Below are positions 8,998 through 19,895 of a stretch of DNA of 32,000 nt, in pieces (positions within the stretch are counted from its first letter, which is position 1; each line of letters opens with the position of its first letter). Made by a program: the position numbers and the translations under genes. This stretch comes from Kiritimatiella glycovorans (GTDB lineage Bacteria > Verrucomicrobiota > Kiritimatiellia > Kiritimatiellales > Kiritimatiellaceae). The DNA lies in assembly GCF_001017655.1 (NCBI RefSeq), contig NZ_CP010904.1, positions 1,950,001 through 1,982,000 on the forward strand, written 5' to 3'. Below the pieces are notes generated by a model, which made no database searches, had not been told where the DNA came from, and saw only the letters and a list, made by a program, of their open reading frames with translations.

Positions 8998-9440
8998 CCT
9001 TCCGGCAGGGCCACGTTCATCAGGCGTTCGAAGACGGCGTACAGTACAAAGGCGGCGATGAACCCGGCCGCGAGGGCCCGCACGGGGTTACGGTAACCCA
9101 GCACACGCAGCGCGGCCGCGAAGAGCAGCGCAGTCGAACTGATAAACCCCAGCCAGGGCATCAGCACCAGGTACAGCGCCGTCAGTCCGCCCAGCAGCGG
9201 GAGGCGCCGCCCGTCCCCCGCCTCCTCCGCCGCGCCGGACTCCGGCGGATTCCTCAGCGTCCCGATCAGTCCGCCCAGCGCCAGCGCCGCGAGCAGCACG
9301 CCCAGAAAGAGCGGGAAGCTGCCCGGTCCCGAATGGGCGTCCTCCGGACGCGGAAAGGTCAGCGAGAGCCCGACGGTTCCGGCCCCGATGATCAACACGA
9401 CGAGATACGCCATACGTTCAATCGTCGTTCGCCGCTTCAT
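8985..9440 (-). CDS. tctB: TTT small membrane subunit TctB
   Basis: 151-aa protein with 4 TM segments between tctC and tctA. Its start overlaps the tctC stop and its stop overlaps the tctA start, which is the canonical tctCBA arrangement. Confidence 0.8.
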   Translation of the reverse strand: MKRRTTIERMAYLVVLIIGAGTVGLSLTFPRPEDAHSGPGSFPLFLGVLLAALALGGLIGTLRNPPESGAAEEAGDGRRLPLLGGLTALYLVLMPWLGFISSTALLFAAALRVLGYRNPVRALAAGFIAAFVLYAVFERLMNVALPEGWIG

Positions 9441-10429
9441 TCCACCAGCCCCAGTTTACGCATGGTCCGGGCCACCTCTTCGGACTGGCGTTCCGCGAGG
9501 GCCCGGAAGTCCTCGTGACCCGCGACATGCAGATTCATGCCCGACTGCGCGGCGAAGGTCTCGAACGCGTCGGATTCGGCGACCGCGCGAAACGTCCCGG
9601 CGAGCACGGCGCGCCGGTCGGGCGGCACGCCCTCGGGCAGCGCCAGCCCGCGCCAGGTGCCGAACACCAGGTCGTAGCCCTGCTCGCGGCAGGTGGGCGT
9701 GTCCGGGAATCCCTCCAGCCGCCCGTCGCTCATGACCCCCAGCAGCCGGACCTGGCCGGACTCCACGTAAGTCTTCAATTCGGCGGGACTGACGGTGACC
9801 GCATCGATATGCCCGCCGATGAGTGAGGTGATGGCCTGGGAGGCACCGTTGAACGGGACGTGCACCGCCGGCATGTCCGTGCGATCGGCCAGCATCGCGG
9901 CCGCGAGGTGCCACACCGCGCCCGCCCCGGAGTTCCCGATACTCGGCGGCTCGCCCGTCTTCGCCCCGCGCACGAATTCCTCCAGCGTCTGCGCCGGATG
10001 ATCGCTGCGCACCGCCACTGCGGCGGGGTCCATGTTCAGCAGCATCAGCAGATCGAAGTCCTCATGGGTAAACGGCGCGAGCCCCTGCACCGGGAGGGAG
10101 ATCAGCTCGAACGTGGTCATCAGCACCGTGTAGCCGTCCACGGGCGCCACCCGACCGGCGGCGTGACCGATCGCCCCGCCCCCGCCGGTCAGGTTGCTCA
10201 CCAGCACCGGCACGCCGAGCCGCTTCTCCGCCTCGTGCGCCAGCTTGCGCGAGAGCAGGTCCGTGCCGCCGCCGGGCGAAAACGGACAGATCAGGGTCAC
10301 CGGCCGTTGCGGAAAGCTCCCGCCCGCCGCGCGACGCTGCCAGTTCATCCACGCCAGCGCGACGATCGCGATAACGATCACCGCCCAGGCCCACGCATTT
10401 TTGCGATCAAACATCGTTCCCGTGCTCAC
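9437..10429 (-). CDS. tctC: TTT periplasmic substrate-binding protein TctC (Bug family)
   Basis: Signal/anchor segment, then FPQRPVTLICPFSPGGGTDLLSRKLA...VSNLTGGGGAIG...DGYTVLM, the Bug/TctC signature. The start is GTG at 10429; an alternative ATG is at 10414. Confidence 0.9.
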   Translation of the reverse strand: MSTGTMFDRKNAWAWAVIVIAIVALAWMNWQRRAAGGSFPQRPVTLICPFSPGGGTDLLSRKLAHEAEKRLGVPVLVSNLTGGGGAIGHAAGRVAPVDGYTVLMTTFELISLPVQGLAPFTHEDFDLLMLLNMDPAAVAVRSDHPAQTLEEFVRGAKTGEPPSIGNSGAGAVWHLAAAMLADRTDMPAVHVPFNGASQAITSLIGGHIDAVTVSPAELKTYVESGQVRLLGVMSDGRLEGFPDTPTCREQGYDLVFGTWRGLALPEGVPPDRRAVLAGTFRAVAESDAFETFAAQSGMNLHVAGHEDFRALAERQSEEVARTMRKLGLVE

Positions 10430-10647: not shown

Positions 10648-12810
10648 TCACGGCTCCAGCGCCGCGCGGCCCACGGTGTCCGTCGCCCCGGTGTAGCCGG
10701 GGCCGCCGCCGGCGAGGTAGCCGTCGCTGCGGCCGGAACGGTCCCGGCTGACCCAGAACGCGTAGAGTGAGCCGTCGGTCAGCTCGAATTGGAAGCGGAC
10801 GGGTGTGTCGGCCAGTTCCGAGAGATCGGCGCCGCCCTTCCATCTGACCGCCGCGAGCGTGCTGTCGACGGAGAGCGGTTTGCAGTTCTCGAGGGTGAAC
10901 GGGGGGATCGGCTCGCCGTTCTCGTCGAGCACGGCGGCGCGCAGGCGACCGCCGGGCGCATCGACATTCACGAAGAGGCGTTTGCCGGAAAAGGTGACCG
11001 GGCGGGTGGTCAGTGTGCCGGGATCCGCCCCGGCGTCCATTGAGGCGAACCCGTCGCGGCGCAAAACGGCGAGACCGGTCGCGCTGTTATCGTAAGTACC
11101 CATCCTATTGCCCGGTTTTCCCCGGTAACCGGTGTAGTAGAAAAAGAGCTTGTCGCCCATGATCGTACACACATTCCCCAGCGACTGCACATACCCGCGG
11201 GCCCAGGCATCGTGGCGTTCGGCGGGGATATGGACTCGGCGGTCCGGGCGGTGGAAGTGGAAGCCGTCGCGGCTGTAGGCGAACTGCAGCTCGGTGATCT
11301 TCGGCAGGCCCGCTTTGTGGCAGATCTCGTTCGGCGGCCCCCAGTGGAGCTGGAACTGGCCGAGCATGATGCTCTCGTAGGCCACCGCGTCGAAGTTGTA
11401 GAGCTGGGCGGGACGTCCGGTGAGGTAATCCACCTTTACGCCCCGATCCTCGTCGAGCATGTCGCCGTCGTTCTCGTCGGCGGTCAACCACGGGACTTCC
11501 TCTGCGTCCGTCCGCTGTGCGCCCGCGACGAAGTCGTCGCATTCGTAGTATTTGCGTGCGCGGCCGCGTCCGGGAAATCCGGCGCGGATGCTGTAGACCC
11601 ATTTTTGGCGGAAGGGATTATAGAAGTGGGTGCTGCGATCGCCCGCCGTGCCGGATTCGGTCCGCCGGTCCCAGTGGATGCCGTCCGCCGAGGTCAGACA
11701 GAATCCGGGTTGCGGCTTGCCGGGCGGCTGGATGAAGAGCGTCCATTTCTCCGCCGGTCGCGCAGCGTCCCAGTTGCGAACCACCGTCCAGGAGTCCGGG
11801 GTAATTCCTTCGGGATGAACGAGATTACCCTGCTCGGGCCACACATCATAGTTCGGACGTTCCCAGTGAATCCCGTCGCGGCTGGTCACTAGGGCGATCG
11901 GCCCGAACCACGAGGTCTCGTACCAGAGTTTGAAGTGCCCGGCGTCCGGATCCCACCAGCACCCGCCGCTCTTCGGGACCGCCCCGGCGTTGCCGTGTCC
12001 GGACGGTTTGGAGTGCCCCTCCGGCTCGACCTCGCCCCGCTCGACCGGCGTCTCGGGCTTGAGCACCGGGTTGCCCGCGTATTTCTCGGGCCGGTGGAAG
12101 GTCCGTTCGAGCGAGGTCTCCGCGATCAGGAAGTCGTCGATAAAGAGCTGGCGGCCGACGTCGATCGGGATGACCTCCGGCGGATGGTCGAGGTACGGCA
12201 CCGGCATCGGGCTGGTGTCCGAAGGATCGATATTCCGCGGCGGCCATTCCTCGGGCAGCCGGATGCCGTTGTAGAGCCGTTCGCCGGTATTTGCGCTCCA
12301 GGGTTTCTCTTCGTATTGAATGGCCTCCCCGAGCCCCACCGCCACGACAAACTTGTTGAATACGAATCGCTCCCCCGTGCGGACCTGTTTGCGGTAGGCG
12401 GCCACCCGGTTCCACGCCTCGTCGCCGAACAACTGAAACGAGGCGGAGTCGGGCACCCGCTCGAACCCGGCCGCTTCCAGCGCCTCGGCCTGCGATCCGT
12501 ATTTGGCACCGGGCACCGGCGTCAACACCGTCAGCGACCCCGGATCCAGCACGAGCCAGTCCTCCGGCTGAGCGATGCCGTTGCGCAGGAACGGCAGGCC
12601 GTGCAGGTCCTCCGGCACCTGGTCGGTGAGCGTGTAGCCGCGGTCGGTGAAGAGTTTGACGCCCGGTTCGAAGCGGGCGACCTCGCCCTTCCCGCGGAAT
12701 TGAAGCGAAGCGCCGGAATCGGCGTATGCGGGAGAGGCAAAGATAACTGAGCCGATCAGGATCAGGCAGGCTGCGACTGGAGCTCTCTTAATTTTGGTCA
12801 TTTCTTCCAT
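10648..12810 (-). CDS. Secreted glycoside hydrolase-like protein: signal peptide, novel about 125-aa N-terminal domain, beta-propeller core (GH43/32/68-clan-like), C-terminal beta-sandwich
   Basis: Signal peptide MEEMTKIKRAPVAACLILIGSVIFASPAYA. Repeated blade motifs are SRDGIHWERP, SADGIHWDRR and SRDGFHFHRP. The C-terminal region (RRDGFASMDA...GTLTTRPVTFSGKRLFVNVDA...VLDENGEPIPPF) resembles the GH32-type C-terminal sandwich. I could not assign a family from sequence alone. Confidence 0.75.
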   Translation of the reverse strand: MEEMTKIKRAPVAACLILIGSVIFASPAYADSGASLQFRGKGEVARFEPGVKLFTDRGYTLTDQVPEDLHGLPFLRNGIAQPEDWLVLDPGSLTVLTPVPGAKYGSQAEALEAAGFERVPDSASFQLFGDEAWNRVAAYRKQVRTGERFVFNKFVVAVGLGEAIQYEEKPWSANTGERLYNGIRLPEEWPPRNIDPSDTSPMPVPYLDHPPEVIPIDVGRQLFIDDFLIAETSLERTFHRPEKYAGNPVLKPETPVERGEVEPEGHSKPSGHGNAGAVPKSGGCWWDPDAGHFKLWYETSWFGPIALVTSRDGIHWERPNYDVWPEQGNLVHPEGITPDSWTVVRNWDAARPAEKWTLFIQPPGKPQPGFCLTSADGIHWDRRTESGTAGDRSTHFYNPFRQKWVYSIRAGFPGRGRARKYYECDDFVAGAQRTDAEEVPWLTADENDGDMLDEDRGVKVDYLTGRPAQLYNFDAVAYESIMLGQFQLHWGPPNEICHKAGLPKITELQFAYSRDGFHFHRPDRRVHIPAERHDAWARGYVQSLGNVCTIMGDKLFFYYTGYRGKPGNRMGTYDNSATGLAVLRRDGFASMDAGADPGTLTTRPVTFSGKRLFVNVDAPGGRLRAAVLDENGEPIPPFTLENCKPLSVDSTLAAVRWKGGADLSELADTPVRFQFELTDGSLYAFWVSRDRSGRSDGYLAGGGPGYTGATDTVGRAALEP

Positions 12811-12813
12811 TGA

Positions 12814-13716
12814 TCAACGCGGATCGATGCATCCCGTTCCCTCGAGGTGCTTCAGACTGTGCCTCATATTTTCGACAACCTGCTCCTCCGACGCGGATCC
12901 GGAGTTGAGTTCCATGGCGGCATACACGGGTTCCGCGCGGTCGCCCAAAAGATCGGCGATTTTTTCAAACGACAGCGGATTGCCGTCGAGGACCGGCAGG
13001 GCCTCGCCGTCGCGGGCGGACTTGAGGTGCAGATACGAAATCCGGTCGGCATAGCGCCGGATGAACGCGGCGGCCTCTTCCGGCGAGGCGGGATGATCGC
13101 CGGTGAACAGGTTGCCGGTATCGAGCTGCAGTTCGACCGCGGGATCCAGTTCGTCCAGCAGCCGACGCATCCCGATGACGCCGTCCGCGCTTCCTTCGAG
13201 CACGACGTCGGCATTCTCGATCATCAGCCGGCGTCCCTTCGCCTGCGCCTTTTCCGCGGCCCAGCGCGCAGAAGCCAGCACCTGTTCAAACTCCGCCCGG
13301 CTCCAGCCGGTGTCGCCTTCCCCGAGCAGCGCCAGTACCCGCATCCGGCTGGGCCCCTCGAAGCAGGCGGCGTTGACCAGCGCCCGTTCGAACACCGGTT
13401 TGAAGTCTTCGGCCAGCAGACCGCGCTGCATGGAATACAGGACCTCCAGCCCCCGCTCGCGGGCGTCGGCGGCAATCCGTTCGCAGTCGGCCTTCGACAG
13501 CGTTGCGTCCGGGTCGCGCAACTCGATCCACGACAACTCGAGTTCGCGCGCTATATCCAGCTGCCGGCGGGCGGTCTCGACCGAAACCGACACCGTCGGG
13601 ATGAAGTTCTGGGTCGTATAGCCGATCTTCATTTCGGACTCCGTGGGTGAAAAATTCGAAACACATCCCGCGCCGAACAGGACCGCGAACGCGACGCCCG
13701 TCGCAAACATCCTCAT
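12814..13716 (-). CDS. Sugar phosphate isomerase/epimerase family protein (xylose isomerase-like TIM barrel)
   Basis: Family-like pattern is present (ELSWIELRD..., RRLMIENAD, LQLDTGNLF, ISYLHLKSA). The start is ambiguous. ATG at 13716 overlaps the kdgK stop (ATGA) and adds a signal-like segment. ATG at 13632 has a GGAG SD and gives the usual MKIGY.. N-terminus. Confidence 0.8.
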   Translation of the reverse strand: MRMFATGVAFAVLFGAGCVSNFSPTESEMKIGYTTQNFIPTVSVSVETARRQLDIARELELSWIELRDPDATLSKADCERIAADARERGLEVLYSMQRGLLAEDFKPVFERALVNAACFEGPSRMRVLALLGEGDTGWSRAEFEQVLASARWAAEKAQAKGRRLMIENADVVLEGSADGVIGMRRLLDELDPAVELQLDTGNLFTGDHPASPEEAAAFIRRYADRISYLHLKSARDGEALPVLDGNPLSFEKIADLLGDRAEPVYAAMELNSGSASEEQVVENMRHSLKHLEGTGCIDPR

Positions 13717-14804: not shown

Positions 14805-14889
14805 GCTTCTGCTTTCCTTTCTGTTGTGCGTCATCTTTTGCATCTCCGGCAGGGCGTGTTCTCCGAATGCGGCGCCTTTCCTTTTTCGC

Positions 14890-15519
14890 TCAGGCCACGG
14901 CCGCCGCGGCGGCGGCCCGTTTCCCGATCTCCTCCCAGCGGTGTTCACGGATCAGGTCGCGCGGGGCGATCCACGATCCCCCGACCGCGCAGATCAGGGG
15001 GCTTTCCAGCCAGCCCGGCAGGTTGTCCTGGTTGAGCCCGCCCAGCGGGATGAACTGCAGGTCGAGGTGCTTGTACGGTCCGGCGGCCGATTTGAGATAC
15101 TTGAGTCCGCCGCAGGGTTCGGCCGGAAAGAACTTCAGCGTGCGGCACCCCAGCTCCACGGCCGCCTCAATCTCCGACGGGGTCATGACGCCCGGCGCGA
15201 ACGGGAGTTCCGCCGAGGCCGCTTCTTCCATGACGTCGCGGTTGAGTCCGGGAGCGACGGCAAAGGCCGCCCCCGCATCCCCGACCCGGCGCACCTGCTC
15301 CCGCGTAAGTACCGTACCCGCCCCCACCAGGATCTCAGGAACGCGTTCACGAATCACGGACATCGCCTCGAGCGCGGCCGGCGTGCGCAGCGTCAGCTCC
15401 ATCGCCCCCACCCCGCCCTCGAGCAGCGTCTCCGCCAGAGGGACCGCATCCGTCGCCTCGTCGATCACCAGCACCGCGATAATCCGCTGCCCGGCCAGCA
15501 GCTCCCTGAACCGATCCAT
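14890..15519 (-). CDS. eda: 2-dehydro-3-deoxyphosphogluconate (KDPG) aldolase
   Basis: 209 aa, MDRFRELLAGQRIIAVLVIDEATDAVPLAETLLEGGVGAMELTLRTPAALEAM... and ...TLKFFPAEPCGG..., the standard Eda pattern. SD aagggggg lies upstream. Confidence 0.9.
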   Translation of the reverse strand: MDRFRELLAGQRIIAVLVIDEATDAVPLAETLLEGGVGAMELTLRTPAALEAMSVIRERVPEILVGAGTVLTREQVRRVGDAGAAFAVAPGLNRDVMEEAASAELPFAPGVMTPSEIEAAVELGCRTLKFFPAEPCGGLKYLKSAAGPYKHLDLQFIPLGGLNQDNLPGWLESPLICAVGGSWIAPRDLIREHRWEEIGKRAAAAAAVA

Positions 15520-15595
15520 TTCACCCCCCTTATATACTATTGCATATTATATAACATACGAAAAGATAATATACACTGATAATGAATCGCGGCCG
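15520..15595 (-). promoter_or_regulatory. AT-rich promoter region of the eda-kdgK-isomerase-GH operon
   Basis: One of the few strongly AT-rich tracts in the window (cttatatactattgcatattatataacatacgaaaagataatatacactgataatg), immediately upstream of eda. On the minus strand it contains TATAAT- and TATATT-type hexamers. Confidence 0.45.
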
Positions 15596-15712
15596 ACGGA
15601 TCAAGTTGAAAAGGGGCTATGGGTGGATTTTTATGGAAGGGTTCCCGGGAAGAGAATGGGATTCACCACAGCGGTCACAGAGGATGCCGGGGTCGGGATG
15701 GGAGACGACAAC

Positions 15713-15805
15713 CGTTCGTAGTAGCGCCGCAAGGCCCGGAGGGCCAAGACGCGTGAAGATAACGGCCCTTGTCCGCTGCGCGGACCTGCGGGCCTACTAC
15801 GAGCG
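15713..15805. repeat. About 93-nt REP-like hairpin unit H1
   Basis: cgttcgtagtagcgccgca...tgcgggcctactacgagcg; the terminal 12 nt are near-perfect reverse complements with an imperfect extension. Confidence 0.75.
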
Positions 15806-16183: not shown

Positions 16184-17911
16184 TCATTCAGCCGCGAACA
16201 GCGGCACGGCCCATTTTCCGAATTCGATCACCTCTCCGGCCGCGCATGTCTTCTGGTACAGCGAGCACAGGTTGGCGGGATAGGACGTGTGCTCGAAGAG
16301 GTTGAATTCGGACAGCGCGACTTTCTCGAAGCCCTGGGCTTCGAGCTTCGCCGACTGGCTTCCGCTCGGATTGCGGTCGGGCAAAGGCGTGGCGAAATAG
16401 ACCACCCCCGCCCGGGAAACGGTCACCGATTTATCGCCGTCGATCGGCACCTGCAGGAAGCGGGCTCCCTTGAGCGCCTCGGGACATTCGGACAGCGCGT
16501 AGCCGCGGTCCGTGAAGAGCTTCGCGCCCGGATCGAACGCGAGTACCTGCACTTCGCCCGCGGCGAACGCGCCGACGGGTGAGCGGCGCAGCGCCGCTCC
16601 GTCGGCGTTGTCGCGCGGCGGGTTTTCGTCCCGCTTCCACTGCGGCGTCGCCTCCCGGGCGCCCTGATGGCGCGGGTTGCGGGCCAGCCCCTTGTCGATC
16701 ACCTGCCGGAAGAGGGCCTTTCCGGAAACCGGCTCGCCGGCCGCGACGTCCTGCTCGGTGAAGGCCGCCATCAGGATTTCTTTCGCGTGGTGGCGCTCGC
16801 GGTCGTAGATCACGTAGATCGTGCCGTCGTCGGCCTGCGTGGCGTCCGGGTAGGAAACATGGGAGCGCTCGTCGATCATCAGGCCGCCGGTCCAGCTCTC
16901 TCCGTCGTCGTCGGACAGGAAGGCCATCAGGCGCTCGCGCCGCCCGGTTTTCTCGCCGGGTTCTCCGTGCTTGACGAGCAGCAGCTTACCGGACTGCAGA
17001 CGGCCGATGTAGAAGCGGGCGACGGTGTGCTCGATGTCGGAGGGCTCCATCGGGGTCCAGGTCTTTCCCTGGTCGCGGGAAAAGCTCTCGCCGATGCCGT
17101 AGTTCATGCGGCTGAGCAGCCACAGCGAACCGTCCTCGCGCTGCACCACCTGGTTCTCGTCGCAGTTACGCCCCTCGGGCATCGGCACATGGCCGCGGAA
17201 CTCGAAGGTCCTGCCCTTGTCGGTGGAAAACAGCGGCCGGAACGGCAGCCGTCCACCGCCCTCGGCACGGGTCAGCGTACCCACCGGCCAGACCCAGGTG
17301 CCGTCGGAGAGCACGGTCGGCTTGTTCATGTGGCCGTAGTCGGTGGCGATAAGCTGCGGCGAATCCCACTCCGGCGACGGGTCGCCGGGGTTATCGGTGG
17401 TGATCGCCCACAGCTGCATGCCGCGGCACTGGTTCTCGAGCACAAAGGTCCGGTAGGAACGGATATCGTCGAAGCGCTTTTTCATATCCGCGGCGTTATC
17501 AGTCGTATAGCGGATCGGCCAGATGCTGAAGGTGAACCACATGCGGTCGTCCGGATCCATCCAGAGCCCGGCATAGGAGGCCCGGAACGGCGGATCGATG
17601 ACCATCTGCGGATCGGACCACGTGCGGCCGCCGTCGCCGCTGGTGGCCAGCATCACGATATTGCTCCAGCCCTCGCCGGTGTCGCCCGAGTCCCACGTCG
17701 CCCACAGGCGTCCGTTGGGGGCGGCGCTGATCCCGAACGAGCAGACGAACATGCGGTTTTCCGCATCGTACTCCGGACCGGGATCGGTGACGACATAGGG
17801 CATATGCGGCCAGCGCGGGGCCTGCTCCGGGTCGCTGTAGTCGGCGGCCGGCAGCGACAGTGCGGACAGCAGGACGGTCAGGGCGGTCAGTTTTTTTATC
17901 GTCTTTTTCAT
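16184..17911 (-). CDS. Secreted BNR/Asp-box (sialidase-superfamily, GH33-like) beta-propeller protein with a C-terminal about 125-aa domain shared with the GH at 10648-12810
   Basis: Start at ATG 17911 (MKKTIKKLTALTVLLSALSLPA signal peptide; SD caggaga). There are four Asp-boxes: SGDGGRTWS, STDKGRTFE, SRDQGKTWT, SDDDGESWT. I did not see a FRIP motif, so true sialidase activity is not established. Confidence 0.85.
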   Translation of the reverse strand: MKKTIKKLTALTVLLSALSLPAADYSDPEQAPRWPHMPYVVTDPGPEYDAENRMFVCSFGISAAPNGRLWATWDSGDTGEGWSNIVMLATSGDGGRTWSDPQMVIDPPFRASYAGLWMDPDDRMWFTFSIWPIRYTTDNAADMKKRFDDIRSYRTFVLENQCRGMQLWAITTDNPGDPSPEWDSPQLIATDYGHMNKPTVLSDGTWVWPVGTLTRAEGGGRLPFRPLFSTDKGRTFEFRGHVPMPEGRNCDENQVVQREDGSLWLLSRMNYGIGESFSRDQGKTWTPMEPSDIEHTVARFYIGRLQSGKLLLVKHGEPGEKTGRRERLMAFLSDDDGESWTGGLMIDERSHVSYPDATQADDGTIYVIYDRERHHAKEILMAAFTEQDVAAGEPVSGKALFRQVIDKGLARNPRHQGAREATPQWKRDENPPRDNADGAALRRSPVGAFAAGEVQVLAFDPGAKLFTDRGYALSECPEALKGARFLQVPIDGDKSVTVSRAGVVYFATPLPDRNPSGSQSAKLEAQGFEKVALSEFNLFEHTSYPANLCSLYQKTCAAGEVIEFGKWAVPLFAAE

Positions 17912-17931
17912 GGCATCTCCTGTTTGCGGGA

Positions 17932-18639
17932 TCACATGATCCCGTACGTATCGAAGGCCTCACGGGCGCCCATTCCGCCCCGGATGGCCTTCAGCACGGT
18001 CTTTTCGCCGCGGGCCTTTTCGATCGCCCGGACGAACACCTCGGTTTCGATCTCGCGGGGAACGACGCAGACACCGTCCATATCCCCGAAGACGATATCG
18101 CCGTCCGCCACGCGCACGCCCTCGATCTCCAGCGGGACGCGGAAATCGAGGACCTTGCCGCGCGGGGCCTGGTCCTGGGCGTAGCGCCCGTAGGAGAAGC
18201 AGGGGAAGTCCTGCGCCAGGATACCGCGCGTATCGCGCGAATAGCCGTTTACGACCGCGCCGGTCGCCCCGCGCTGAATCGCGCACGCGCTCATCAGCTC
18301 GCCCCACAGGGCGTACGACGGCGATGCACCGCTGCAGACATAGACCTCGTTCGGGCGCAGGTCGTCGAGCGCCTCGAGCATCAGGCCGAACGGTCGTCCG
18401 AGCAGCGGGTTGCGCTCCGCGGGTTCCGCGATCGGCGGCACATCCGCCTCCAGCACCGGCATCGCCCTCCCGACGGCCACCATATCCTTCCGCAGCGGTT
18501 TGATCCGCGGCGGCAGGAACTGGTGCAGCAGCCCCATCTTATCCATGATATCGCCTACCACGGCGGTGTACAGCTCCCCGCGCGCGAGCGCGAACAGCTC
18601 CTCGTCATCGTTCCACATCATCGAATCACCCTTCCTCAT
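17932..18639 (-). CDS. RraA family protein (class II 4-hydroxy-2-oxoacid aldolase / oxaloacetate decarboxylase-like)
   Basis: 235 aa with an RraA/HMG-aldolase-like core (..VYVCSGASPSYALWGELMSACAIQRGATGAVVNGYSRD.. and ..GDIVFGDMDGVCVVP..). The start overlaps the transporter stop (ATGA); an alternative ATG at 18621 has a ggaaggg SD. Confidence 0.8.
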   Translation of the reverse strand: MRKGDSMMWNDDEELFALARGELYTAVVGDIMDKMGLLHQFLPPRIKPLRKDMVAVGRAMPVLEADVPPIAEPAERNPLLGRPFGLMLEALDDLRPNEVYVCSGASPSYALWGELMSACAIQRGATGAVVNGYSRDTRGILAQDFPCFSYGRYAQDQAPRGKVLDFRVPLEIEGVRVADGDIVFGDMDGVCVVPREIETEVFVRAIEKARGEKTVLKAIRGGMGAREAFDTYGIM

Positions 18640-19895
18640 GACGCGATCAGTTCCATCAGCGCGACCACGGCGTTTCTCGACATGACCAGCGCGAAGATCA
18701 GGGCGGTCCCCATGCCGGCGTTCAGCCAGAACCCGGCCCTGCGCTCGCCCATGATCGACCGCTTGTTACAGAGCACGATAAAGAGCGCGACCACCAGTGG
18801 GAGGATGAACACCTGCGAGACCTGCGTGGCGATCTGGGCTGCGATCGGATTGGCGCCCAGCACCGGCACGACCAGGCCCAGCACACAGGCCACCGCGGTC
18901 AGGATGCGGAACAGCTTCGACTTGCTGTCGAACACCCCGTTGCGGTAGTCGCTGATCAGCAGCGGGGCGACCATCGCGGCCGGGAATACGGACGAGAGCC
19001 CGGCGCTGAGCGTCCCGACCAGGAACAGCGCCACGGCGTAGCGCCCCGCCACCGGTTCCAGACTCTGCACCATGTCCAGCACATGGTGGATCTCCATGCC
19101 CCGGCGGTGCAGGGCCCCGGCCGCGCAGGCCATCACCGAACCGCTGACCACGAACATCAGCGCCGCGCCGCTGAAGGCATCGATCGACTGGCGGCGGTGA
19201 TCCTCCGCCCCCCACCCCTTGGCCTTGAGCAGCAGCGGGCGGACGACGAAGGTCGGTGCCGCCATGGTCGTGCCCACAAACGCGGCGATCATCAGCGTCG
19301 CGCCGGGCACGTCCGGCACCGTCGGCACAAACCCGCGAACCACCTCGCCGGCCGGCGGGAAGACGATGAACATGGAGACGATAAAGGAGAGTCCCAGGAT
19401 GGTGACGAAGAAGATCAGCACCTTCTCGAAGAAGGAGTAGCCGCCGTGCCAGAGCAGGGCGTACATGGTCGCCATCACGACCGCCGCGATGCCCAGTACG
19501 GGCCAGTAGGCGTTTTCGGGCAGCGAAGGGATGAAGAGCCGCAACGCCTCGTAGACCGCGCTGGAGGAGAGGCCGACCAGGCCGGAGAGACAGCACCACT
19601 GGCCGACGACGACCCCGATCACCACCAGGACGGCCAGGACGTTTCCGGCCGGCATGTGCCGCCGGCAGCCGTGGACCGCCGTATCCCCCGAACACAGCGC
19701 GAAGCGCCCGGAAGCCTCGAGCAGGATCCACGAGAAGAAACAGCTGAGGGCCAGCACCCACAAAAGCTGCATGCCGAACTGACTGCCGGCCTTGCTCATC
19801 GAGGTCACGCTGCCGGTGCCGACGGTATAGCCGATGGCGAACAGCCCCGGCCCGATGCCCGCCAGTGTGCCCAGGATTTTTCGGGTAAGGTTCAT
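18636..19895 (-). CDS. NRAMP-fold (LeuT-fold) transporter lacking the canonical DPGN metal-binding motif
   Basis: 419 aa with about 11 TM segments. The N-terminus GIGPGLFAIGYTVGTGSVTSMSKAGSQFGMQLLWV aligns with the MntH segment GPG....GYIDPGN.......G..FGY.LLW, but has VGTG in place of DPGN. Both its start and its stop overlap neighbouring genes as ATGA. Confidence 0.8.
   Translation of the reverse strand: MNLTRKILGTLAGIGPGLFAIGYTVGTGSVTSMSKAGSQFGMQLLWVLALSCFFSWILLEASGRFALCSGDTAVHGCRRHMPAGNVLAVLVVIGVVVGQWCCLSGLVGLSSSAVYEALRLFIPSLPENAYWPVLGIAAVVMATMYALLWHGGYSFFEKVLIFFVTILGLSFIVSMFIVFPPAGEVVRGFVPTVPDVPGATLMIAAFVGTTMAAPTFVVRPLLLKAKGWGAEDHRRQSIDAFSGAALMFVVSGSVMACAAGALHRRGMEIHHVLDMVQSLEPVAGRYAVALFLVGTLSAGLSSVFPAAMVAPLLISDYRNGVFDSKSKLFRILTAVACVLGLVVPVLGANPIAAQIATQVSQVFILPLVVALFIVLCNKRSIMGERRAGFWLNAGMGTALIFALVMSRNAVVALMELIAS

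Follow-up and report, generated by a model that had tools for sequence, protein, structure and literature searches.

An Asp-less Nramp-fold transporter of Kiritimatiella glycovorans belongs to a clade associated with sugar-acid and acidic-glycan catabolic loci

Nramp/SLC11 is the textbook family of metal-ion carriers, and its members and near relatives are told apart by paired motifs, written DxxN-AxxM for Nramp, DxxN-AxxT for NRAT and DxxG-TxxA/T for NRMT (PMC8806188). The aspartate of the first motif, in transmembrane helix 1 (TM1), is, in the words of that study, 'universally conserved in all SLC11 proteins', and its replacement in the Mg2+ transporter EleNRMT (D55A) strongly compromises transport (PMC8806188). 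A glutamate in TM3 binds Mn in BfraNramp, according to a 2026 preprint from the Gaudet laboratory (PMC12873925). Here we describe a gene in a 32,000-nucleotide stretch of the Kiritimatiella glycovorans genome (contig NZ_CP010904.1, positions 1,950,001 to 1,982,000; hereafter the window), the product of which has the Nramp fold and lacks the acidic and soft metal ligands of these carriers. It belongs to an Asp-less clade, named here xGTG after its TM1 motif, that recurs beside genes for the catabolism of sugar acids and acidic glycans, and we consider it a probable importer of such acids.

Nramp relatives without the canonical DPGN motif, and the loss of that motif, are already published (PMC10606218; PMC12873925). 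Within PF01566, Cellier distinguishes 'orphan and NRMT' outgroups, of which the orphan one is marked by invariant helix 3 glycines (PMC10606218), and the Gaudet laboratory preprint describes several Nramp-related groups, among them 'G-motif 3', which includes the hypothesised Mn importer MntG; the groups apart from NRMT and MntG are there called 'entirely uncharacterized' (PMC12873925). Two Asp-less proteins have been studied genetically. YcsG/MntG of Bacillus subtilis had once been annotated as an importer of 5-oxoproline; its over-expression increases cellular Mn, and a triple mutant of mntH, mntA and ycsG was unobtainable (PMC10448178). MumT of Acinetobacter baumannii shares less than 25% identity with known NRAMPs and is encoded in a urea-carboxylase operon; its deletion lowers cellular Mn and confers Mn tolerance (PMC5050338).

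The translation of the window gene begins MNLTRKILGTLAGIGPGLFAIGYTVGTGSVTSMSKAGSQFGMQLLWV and matches PF01566 (Nramp) from end to end at 205.8 bits against a Pfam cut-off of 29.8, this being the sole Pfam family on the protein at E <= 0.01. Neither of the NCBIfam MntH/nramp models reaches its cut-off (NF001923, 90.6 against 430; TIGR01197, 38.7 against 272.5), and the broad NF037982 is the only NCBIfam Nramp model that does (82.3 against 50), which is probably why homologues carry the public label 'Nramp family divalent metal transporter'. An AlphaFold2 model, built from an input alignment of 86 sequences, has a mean predicted local distance difference test score (pLDDT) of 90.1 and a predicted TM-score (pTM) of 0.89. 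Foldseek places DraNramp, BfraNramp and EleNRMT at the top of its ranking for this model (TM-score 0.77-0.82, 19-21% identity), the values for DraNramp being 0.77-0.79, consistent with the 11-helix LeuT fold of canonical SLC11/Nramp; APC carriers such as ApcT form the next tier at a TM-score of about 0.6. EleNRMT (PDB 7qia) is both the best PDB sequence match (E 2.6e-16) and the structure with the top query-normalised TM-score, 0.82. On the strength of the model we are confident that this is an Nramp-fold protein, as a first-pass annotation made from the sequence had supposed.

The register of the binding-site motifs was counted from the GPG shared in ungapped HMMER alignments to EleNRMT and DraNramp, and the MAFFT register agrees. 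Ele D55-A-G-G58 and Dra D56-P-G-N59 both stand opposite G26-T27-G28-S29 of the window protein. The first-pass annotation had read DPGN as replaced by VGTG (V25-G28; 19812-19823); the absence of Asp and Asn holds in either register, but the motif proper is GTGS, lying within the segment GYTVGTGS encoded at 19809-19832. In TM6 the candidate VGTTMAAPTF was well chosen, since it contains G208-T-T-M-A212-A-P214, which aligns with Dra G226-A-T-V-M230-P-H232 and substitutes Thr209 for Ala227, Ala212 for Met230 and Pro214 for His232. The helices of the AlphaFold2 model break at residues 22-26 in TM1 and 211-212 in TM6, the positions aligned to the canonical motifs.

All of the Nramp and NRMT cation ligands are therefore gone (D56 to G26, N59 to S29, M230 to A212, E134 to G105), in line with the earlier claim that both metal half-sites had been lost; to these must be added TM3 acids that it did not mention, Dra E134, D131 and E124 having become G105, C102 and V95. 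Among the charged residues of the canonical TM3/TM9 proton pathway, the TM9 Arg alone is kept (R330). The pathway His of TM6b (Dra H237) aligns with Arg219, and the TM10 Gln is kept as Q358. In the notation introduced above the protein reads GxxS-TxxA. These replacements are near-invariant across the clade and hence not noise: among 141 aligned members, G26 and G28 are found in every one, T209 in 140, S29, G105 and Q358 in 137 each and A212 in 128, while Arg219 is kept in 22 of 24 clade representatives (50% identity set) and TM1 reads GY[T][IV]GTGS in 116 of 119 close homologues.

These substitutions bear on the reading that the protein is still a divalent-metal importer, supplying Mn2+ or Mg2+ to co-encoded metalloenzymes and holding the ion through backbone carbonyls, Thr/Ser hydroxyls and water. 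The same role has been proposed for MumT with urea carboxylase and for MntG/YcsG with 5-oxoprolinase, the TM6 half-site T..A (T209..A212) is identical to that of EleNRMT, and the TM10 Gln is common to both (PMC8806188). YcsG-type proteins (IGPG / GTTIVPY), too, are Asp-less, yet MntG and MumT have Mn phenotypes (PMC10448178, PMC5050338). We nevertheless consider metal import unlikely: an aspartate that is universal in SLC11, and the loss of which cripples EleNRMT (PMC8806188), is Gly throughout the aligned clade, the Mn-binding TM3 Glu of BfraNramp (PMC12873925) is Gly105 here, and a conserved Arg219 occupies the place of the pathway His.

A search of 1.84 billion representative proteins returned 1915 relatives of the transporter. 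In a maximum-likelihood tree of 71 rows a branch with a Shimodaira-Hasegawa-like approximate likelihood-ratio test (SH-aLRT) value of 100 separates the xGTG sequences from the xGPG groups, and EleNRMT, DraNramp and BfraNramp are nested among the latter. The phylogeny proposed at the outset thus places the protein in a separate clade, apart from Nramp, NRMT and YcsG-like proteins, and one that co-occurs with catabolic genes. The YcsG-type group was recognised by pxpABC synteny, a homologue search having listed no named YcsG: a Hirschia baltica xGPG member (IGPG / GTTIVPY) sits in an Nramp-LamB_YcsF-CT_C_D-CT_A_B operon, and is taken as YcsG-type since this is the pxpABC arrangement of B. subtilis ycsG. 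Against EleNRMT the YcsG-type protein scores E 2e-36 and the window transporter 2.6e-16, and this weaker score makes the latter the more remote. In the tree the YcsG group is nearer to the canonical Nramps and NRMT than to the xGTG clade.

The window transporter resembles YcsG/MntG and MumT in being Asp-less (they have GPGT for DPGN) and encoded inside a catabolic operon, at 23-27% identity. It differs in TM1 (GTGS here, GPGT there) and in TM6b (AAPTFVVR here, against the canonical-like VPYNLFL), as well as in clade. Their operons are of the pxpABC and urea-carboxylase kinds, whereas xGTG loci have other neighbours; LamB_YcsF, CT_C_D and CT_A_B were annotated in none of the orthologue loci with Pfam gene tables, the other loci being checked against a sugar-pathway panel only. 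With the YcsG group nearer to canonical Nramps in the tree and canonical-like in TM6b, the YcsG precedent for metal import transfers poorly. Regulation offers a further contrast: ycsG is under MntR control, whereas genes of the window clade adjoin regulators of sugar or acid types (an FCD plus AraC protein in the window, LacI and AraC elsewhere), and an Rfam search for riboswitches, those for Mn and Mg among them, detected nothing in the window but a tRNA. The genome, furthermore, already carries MgtE and a ZnuA-type metal ABC binding protein, and with cellular Mg2+ in the millimolar range an importer for each operon seems unnecessary. Compared with EleNRMT, the NRMT DxxG Asp has become Gly, as has Glu133, identity is about 20%, and NRMT groups in the tree with the canonical Nramps and YcsG-like proteins.

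The xGTG clade fits Cellier's 'orphan outgroup' (PMC10606218), which likewise lies in PF01566 outside SLC11, has Gly at the Asp position and lacks DPGN and MPH. It is probably also one of the 'G-motif' groups of PMC12873925. With the orphan and G-motif groups, as described, it shares a Gly-rich TM3 (G98, G105, G108) and the lack of the TM3/TM9 proton-pathway acids. Neither PMC10606218 nor PMC12873925 gives a function or genomic context for this group, whereas the xGTG clade is tied here to loci for sugar-acid and acidic-glycan catabolism. This link is new; in the literature searched, mostly outside subscription journals, no paper was found that ties Nramp-like proteins to a sugar-acid role, and an Alteromonas alginate-cluster figure legend merely lists 'Nramp, metal-ion transporter'.

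On the minus strand of the window the genes run in the order URO-D-like, transporter, RraA-like and BNR (Table 1), and the first three are joined by ATGA stop/start overlaps, one at the URO-D-like stop and transporter start and one at the transporter stop and RraA-like start. As judged from these overlaps, the transporter is translationally coupled to both neighbours. AGGAG followed by ATG comes 20 nt past the RraA-like stop, and the true start of the BNR gene is likely this ATG, at 17911; the N-terminus of the BNR protein is MKKTIKKLTALTVLLSALSLPA. A gap of 665 nt follows the BNR gene, and then come eda, the kinase, the TIM-barrel gene and the 720-aa gene, with eda and the kdgK-like kinase 3.1 kb downstream of the transporter on the same strand. 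The catabolic operon that had been noticed from the sequence is thus borne out, and similar contexts occur in several phyla. The window eda is the sole PF01081 match (G000:C1:1964920-1965498, window 14920-15498) in a genome of 2.95 Mb that is 99.97% complete, and its locus is the single one for KDG breakdown in this genome.

Table 1. Features of the window, with positions counted from its first nucleotide
Feature	Position	Strand	Basis
Nramp-fold transporter gene, Asp-less xGTG clade	18636..19895	minus	ORF (open reading frame), 419 aa; PF01566
TM1 unwound-region motif G26-T27-G28-S29, replacing D-P-G-N (NRMT D-A-G-G)	19809..19820	minus	HMMER and MAFFT; codons GGC ACC GGC AGC
TM6 motif G208-T-T-M-A-A-P214, replacing G-A-T-V-M-P-H (NRMT G-T-T-I-A-P-W)	19254..19274	minus	alignment; AlphaFold2 break 211-212
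Arg219 on TM6b, aligned to canonical proton-pathway His (Dra H237)	19239..19241	minus	counted from HMMER alignment
Gly105 on TM3, aligned to Dra E134 / Ele E133	19581..19583	minus	HMMER alignment
URO-D-like gene, 368 aa	19892..20998	minus	PF01208 61.1 bits; weak MtaA/CmuA-type matches
RraA-like gene (class II pyruvate aldolase family)	17932..18639	minus	PF03737 110.9 bits; HMG/CHA-aldolase-type matches
Secreted BNR/Asp-box sialidase-like beta-propeller	16184..17935	minus	PF13088 92.3 bits; distant exo-alpha-sialidase matches E 3e-9
eda (KDPG/KHG aldolase)	14890..15519	minus	PF01081; TIGR01182 228 bits vs cut-off 156
PfkB-family KDG-kinase-like gene, 411 aa	13713..14948	minus	PF00294; NF041633 kinase part 447 bits; KDG/KDGal kinase 183 bits
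Xylose-isomerase-like TIM-barrel gene	12814..13716	minus	PF01261
720-aa protein	10648..12810	minus	recurrent near orthologues
Divergent regulator, N-terminal FCD ligand domain and C-terminal AraC-type helix-turn-helix	21114..21926	plus	PF07729, PF12833, PF00165
TctC-type (tripartite tricarboxylate transporter) binding protein	9437-10429	minus	cluster end
tRNA gene	326-399	minus	sole Rfam match in window

Gene context was examined in 64 genome loci and 11 looked-up contigs. Among the orthologues 50-77% identical to the transporter, Ruficoccus has eda-pfkB-BNR_2-transporter next to a LacI gene, metagenome-assembled genomes (MAGs) of Kiritimatiellales and Verrucomicrobia have BNR_2, RraA-like, URO-D-like, kdgK and eda genes, and Phycisphaerae have transporter-BNR_2. 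MR_MLE (an enolase-superfamily dehydratase) precedes the transporter by an 8-nt gap in Imperialibacter; Cytophagales have MR_MLE-TIM barrel (AP_endonuc_2)-transporter, followed by UxuA, a short-chain dehydrogenase/reductase (SDR) and TRAP; and Flexithrix has MR_MLE, three sulfatases and an FAA-hydrolase-family gene. Saprospiraceae have complete alginate loci in the order SusC/D, PL7, transporter, PL17-type lyase, KdgF cupin, MFS, a pair of SDRs, KdgK and Eda; the window kinase is 43-45% identical to the kinase of these loci. In 'Bacteroides sp.' MAGs it is accompanied by a LUD-domain gene, a sulfatase, BNR_2 and GH29 fucosidases, and in Cyclobacterium by two amidohydrolases, a pyridoxal-phosphate (PLP) enzyme and RidA on one side and SusC/D on the other. 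More distant xGTG members follow GH88 (unsaturated glucuronyl hydrolase) in a GH28/GH2/GH20 locus or, in Gayadomonas and Maribacter, share an operon with a phosphomannose-isomerase (PMI)-like cupin, a PL17 lyase and TonB receptor adjoining in Gayadomonas only. The RraA-like gene also adjoins orthologues in two further loci (L005 and L008), and homologues of the TIM-barrel protein (36-38%) adjoin the transporter in 10 loci, lying directly upstream of it in the Cytophagales orthologue loci. A view of the transporter as the sole carrier of its locus was rejected, MFS, TRAP or SSF genes co-occurring in some of these loci.

For neighbour counts the loci were dereplicated to 35 clusters at 85% identity, and neighbours within 10 kb were scored on a limited sugar-pathway panel. 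Six of the 35 had eda, each time on the same strand as the transporter, against an expectation of about 0.15-0.25 for a single-copy gene (Poisson p < 1e-6); these clusters amount to perhaps three independent arrangements. BNR_2 was a neighbour in nine.

The chemistry of these neighbours converges on a narrow class of compounds. KdgK and Eda act on 2-keto-3-deoxygluconate (KDG), which UxuA and MR_MLE dehydratases produce; 4-deoxy-L-erythro-5-hexoseulose uronic acid (DEH) derives from alginate and 5-keto-4-deoxyuronate (DKI) from the action of GH88; and sialidase-like enzymes liberate ulosonic acids, which pyruvate aldolases are able to cleave. Because acidic 2-keto-3-deoxy and 4-deoxy-5-keto sugars are common to all of this chemistry, and the transporter has lost four acidic residues and Met, gained a conserved Arg in its inner pathway and acquired a Gly/Ser/Thr-rich unwound site, we infer its substrate class, binding mode and direction of transport as follows. 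With moderate confidence, we propose that it imports a sugar acid of the 2-keto-3-deoxy or 4-deoxy-5-keto type and not a metal cation, the most likely candidates being KDG, a DEH/DKI-like compound or an ulosonic acid that the adjacent BNR sialidase-like enzyme would set free. The non-metal substrate argued for in the first-pass annotation accordingly gains from the ligand loss and the sugar-acid context, but it stays conditional, given the genetic evidence for Mn import by the Asp-less YcsG/MntG and MumT (PMC10448178, PMC5050338).

The protein would be an inner-membrane LeuT-fold secondary carrier of the xGTG branch of PF01566 and a functional analogue of KdgT (PF03812), the enterobacterial permease for KDG, DKI and 2,5-diketo-3-deoxygluconate (DKII). 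The proposed job of the two is alike, down to co-location with kdgK and eda, and the analogy would be one of function, KdgT having a different fold and no homology to the transporter; PF03812 has no match anywhere in the genome. In APC and other LeuT-fold carriers the G[ST]G of the unwound TM1 binds the substrate carboxylate through backbone amides. By analogy, the carboxylate and hydroxyls of a sugar acid may be held by the backbone amides and Ser/Thr hydroxyls of G-T-G-S in TM1 and G-T-T in TM6. The APC amino-acid carriers that share the LeuT fold and TM1 G[ST]G (ApcT, AdiC, LAT1) are remote, at 12-15% identity, and we treat the likeness to GTGS as a lead only. Replacement of the pathway His by Arg219, together with the loss of four acidic residues, might have made the pathway anion-friendly instead of cation-friendly. 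Once imported, the product would either serve as a substrate for cleavage by the RraA-like aldolase or undergo phosphorylation and cleavage via KdgK and Eda.

Several observations weigh against import of a sugar acid. The nearest relatives with genetics, YcsG/MntG and MumT, sit in catabolic operons and are Asp-less, yet are reported as Mn importers (PMC10448178, PMC5050338). The contexts are heterogeneous and so point to no single substrate: only 11 of the 35 clusters have a core gene of the KDG pathway or of alginate breakdown within 10 kb, and about seven have no panel gene at all. The loci are phylogenetically non-independent, with some 5-6 distinct arrangements. A second likely sugar-acid carrier is present in several of them (MFS in the alginate loci, TRAP in Cytophagales, SSF), and metalloenzymes are frequent neighbours (the enolase superfamily, UxuA, TIM-barrel isomerases, RraA-type aldolases); both the additional carriers and the metal-dependent enzymes suit the importer of Mn2+ or Mg2+ discussed above.

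The same diversity bears on whether the cargo might be some other product of glycan breakdown, such as a neutral sugar, an anhydro-sugar or an amino-sugar acid, or whether a toxic intermediate is exported, either of which we judge improbable. The amidohydrolases, PLP enzyme and RidA of Cyclobacterium, the GH29 and GH20 enzymes, the PMI-like cupin and a Gfo/Idh/MocA plus alcohol dehydrogenase context would all be compatible with such a cargo, as would the unexplained URO-D-like enzyme of the window operon, for which decarboxylation or O-demethylation of a modified sugar is a conceivable role. The binding motifs, however, are strictly conserved across these contexts, which argues for one chemical class, and each of the recurrent enzymes (eda, kdgK, MR_MLE, UxuA, KdgF, PL7/PL17, GH88 and RraA-type aldolase) either forms or uses up acidic sugars of the 2-keto-3-deoxy type.

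It is with polyanionic glycans in particular (alginate, sulfated fucans, substrates of GH88) that the clade is associated, and this raises the further idea that a metal-sugar-acid chelate is imported, for example Mg2+ or Ca2+ with uronate or KDG, in the manner of the CitM/CitH metal-citrate carriers, which would suit cation-loaded polyanions such as alginate. Descent from, or sister relationship to, metal carriers and an NRMT-like enlarged T..A/G site (PMC8806188) would accord with this, and it could reconcile the Mn phenotypes of YcsG and MumT with their organic-acid operons. We think it very unlikely: it is purely speculative, no protein ligand is left to touch the metal, PF01566 offers no precedent, and plain import of a sugar acid is the simpler account of the same data.

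If the xGTG clade does carry sugar acids, it would show a LeuT-fold site switching between cations and organic anions, and a mass mis-annotation would be corrected, this sister clade of Nramp being large and widespread, with thousands of members at E <= 1e-5 that are automatically named divalent metal transporters. It would also fill the inner-membrane step in the marine and gut degradation of alginate, pectin or glycosaminoglycan (GAG)-like and sulfated glycans by Bacteroidota, Verrucomicrobiota, Kiritimatiellota and Planctomycetota. A wider proposal, which we put forward as doubtful, is that organic-carboxylate carriers, and not metal carriers, make up the entire Asp-less ('G-motif') part of PF01566. 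In that case the xGTG clade would be the missing inner-membrane importer of KDG, DEH, DKI and ulosonic acids in the acidic-polysaccharide loci of Planctomycetota-Verrucomicrobiota-Chlamydiota (PVC) bacteria, Bacteroidota and some Proteobacteria, 5-oxoproline-like acids would be the cargo of YcsG-type proteins, and Nramp metal transport would have arisen from such a carrier by gain of the TM1 Asp and TM3 Glu; were this true, thousands of 'Nramp family divalent metal transporter' entries would be wrong.

Other features of the window are less closely connected with the transporter. The 720-aa protein has no match in Pfam or NCBIfam, and its homologues (50-61%) lie near the transporter in three loci of Verrucomicrobia and Kiritimatiellales (L058 7837-9852, L006 737-2833, L013 15915-17957). 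FCD domains normally follow a winged helix of the GntR type and have carboxylic acids as ligands; the FCD domain of the divergent regulator is joined to an AraC-type helix-turn-helix. The TctC-type gene at the cluster end is an orphan, with no recognisable TctA or TctB beside it, and a tripartite tricarboxylate transporter system has been linked to alginate utilisation in Vibrio (PMC13390454). A longer, spurious plus-strand ORF (14867-15721) overlaps the real minus-strand eda in this GC-rich DNA, where ORF length alone mis-calls the gene. Counts from a promoter/terminator consensus scan of the window were no higher than in shuffled sequence.

Among the orthologue loci, the URO-D-like gene recurs in L005 (8942-9952), L077 (522-1694) and L075 (13730-14842), and stands beside an S-methyltransferase-family gene on a Latescibacterota contig. 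In L077 the gene immediately before the transporter is an unannotated one of 723 aa, and in Flexithrix (L073 6803-7897) an unannotated gene of 364 aa precedes the transporter. The cupin of Gayadomonas and Maribacter, PMI-type-I-like, is also 364 aa long (L079 6907-8001, L080 9266-10360), the genes overlapping or lying 3 nt apart. The Foldseek matches to the window model include 9a52_A, an integrative model of the YcsG-FabL complex of B. subtilis that is not in the PDB sequence file searched. No canonical DPGN Nramp is present in the K. glycovorans genome, and outside the window it carries a second Nramp-related gene (G000:C1:242190-243986; L003 1324-3120, plus strand), which encodes a 598-aa protein, also Asp-less, with TM1 GPGWLQSAITIGGGSLSNS, weak split PF01566 matches and a long insert.

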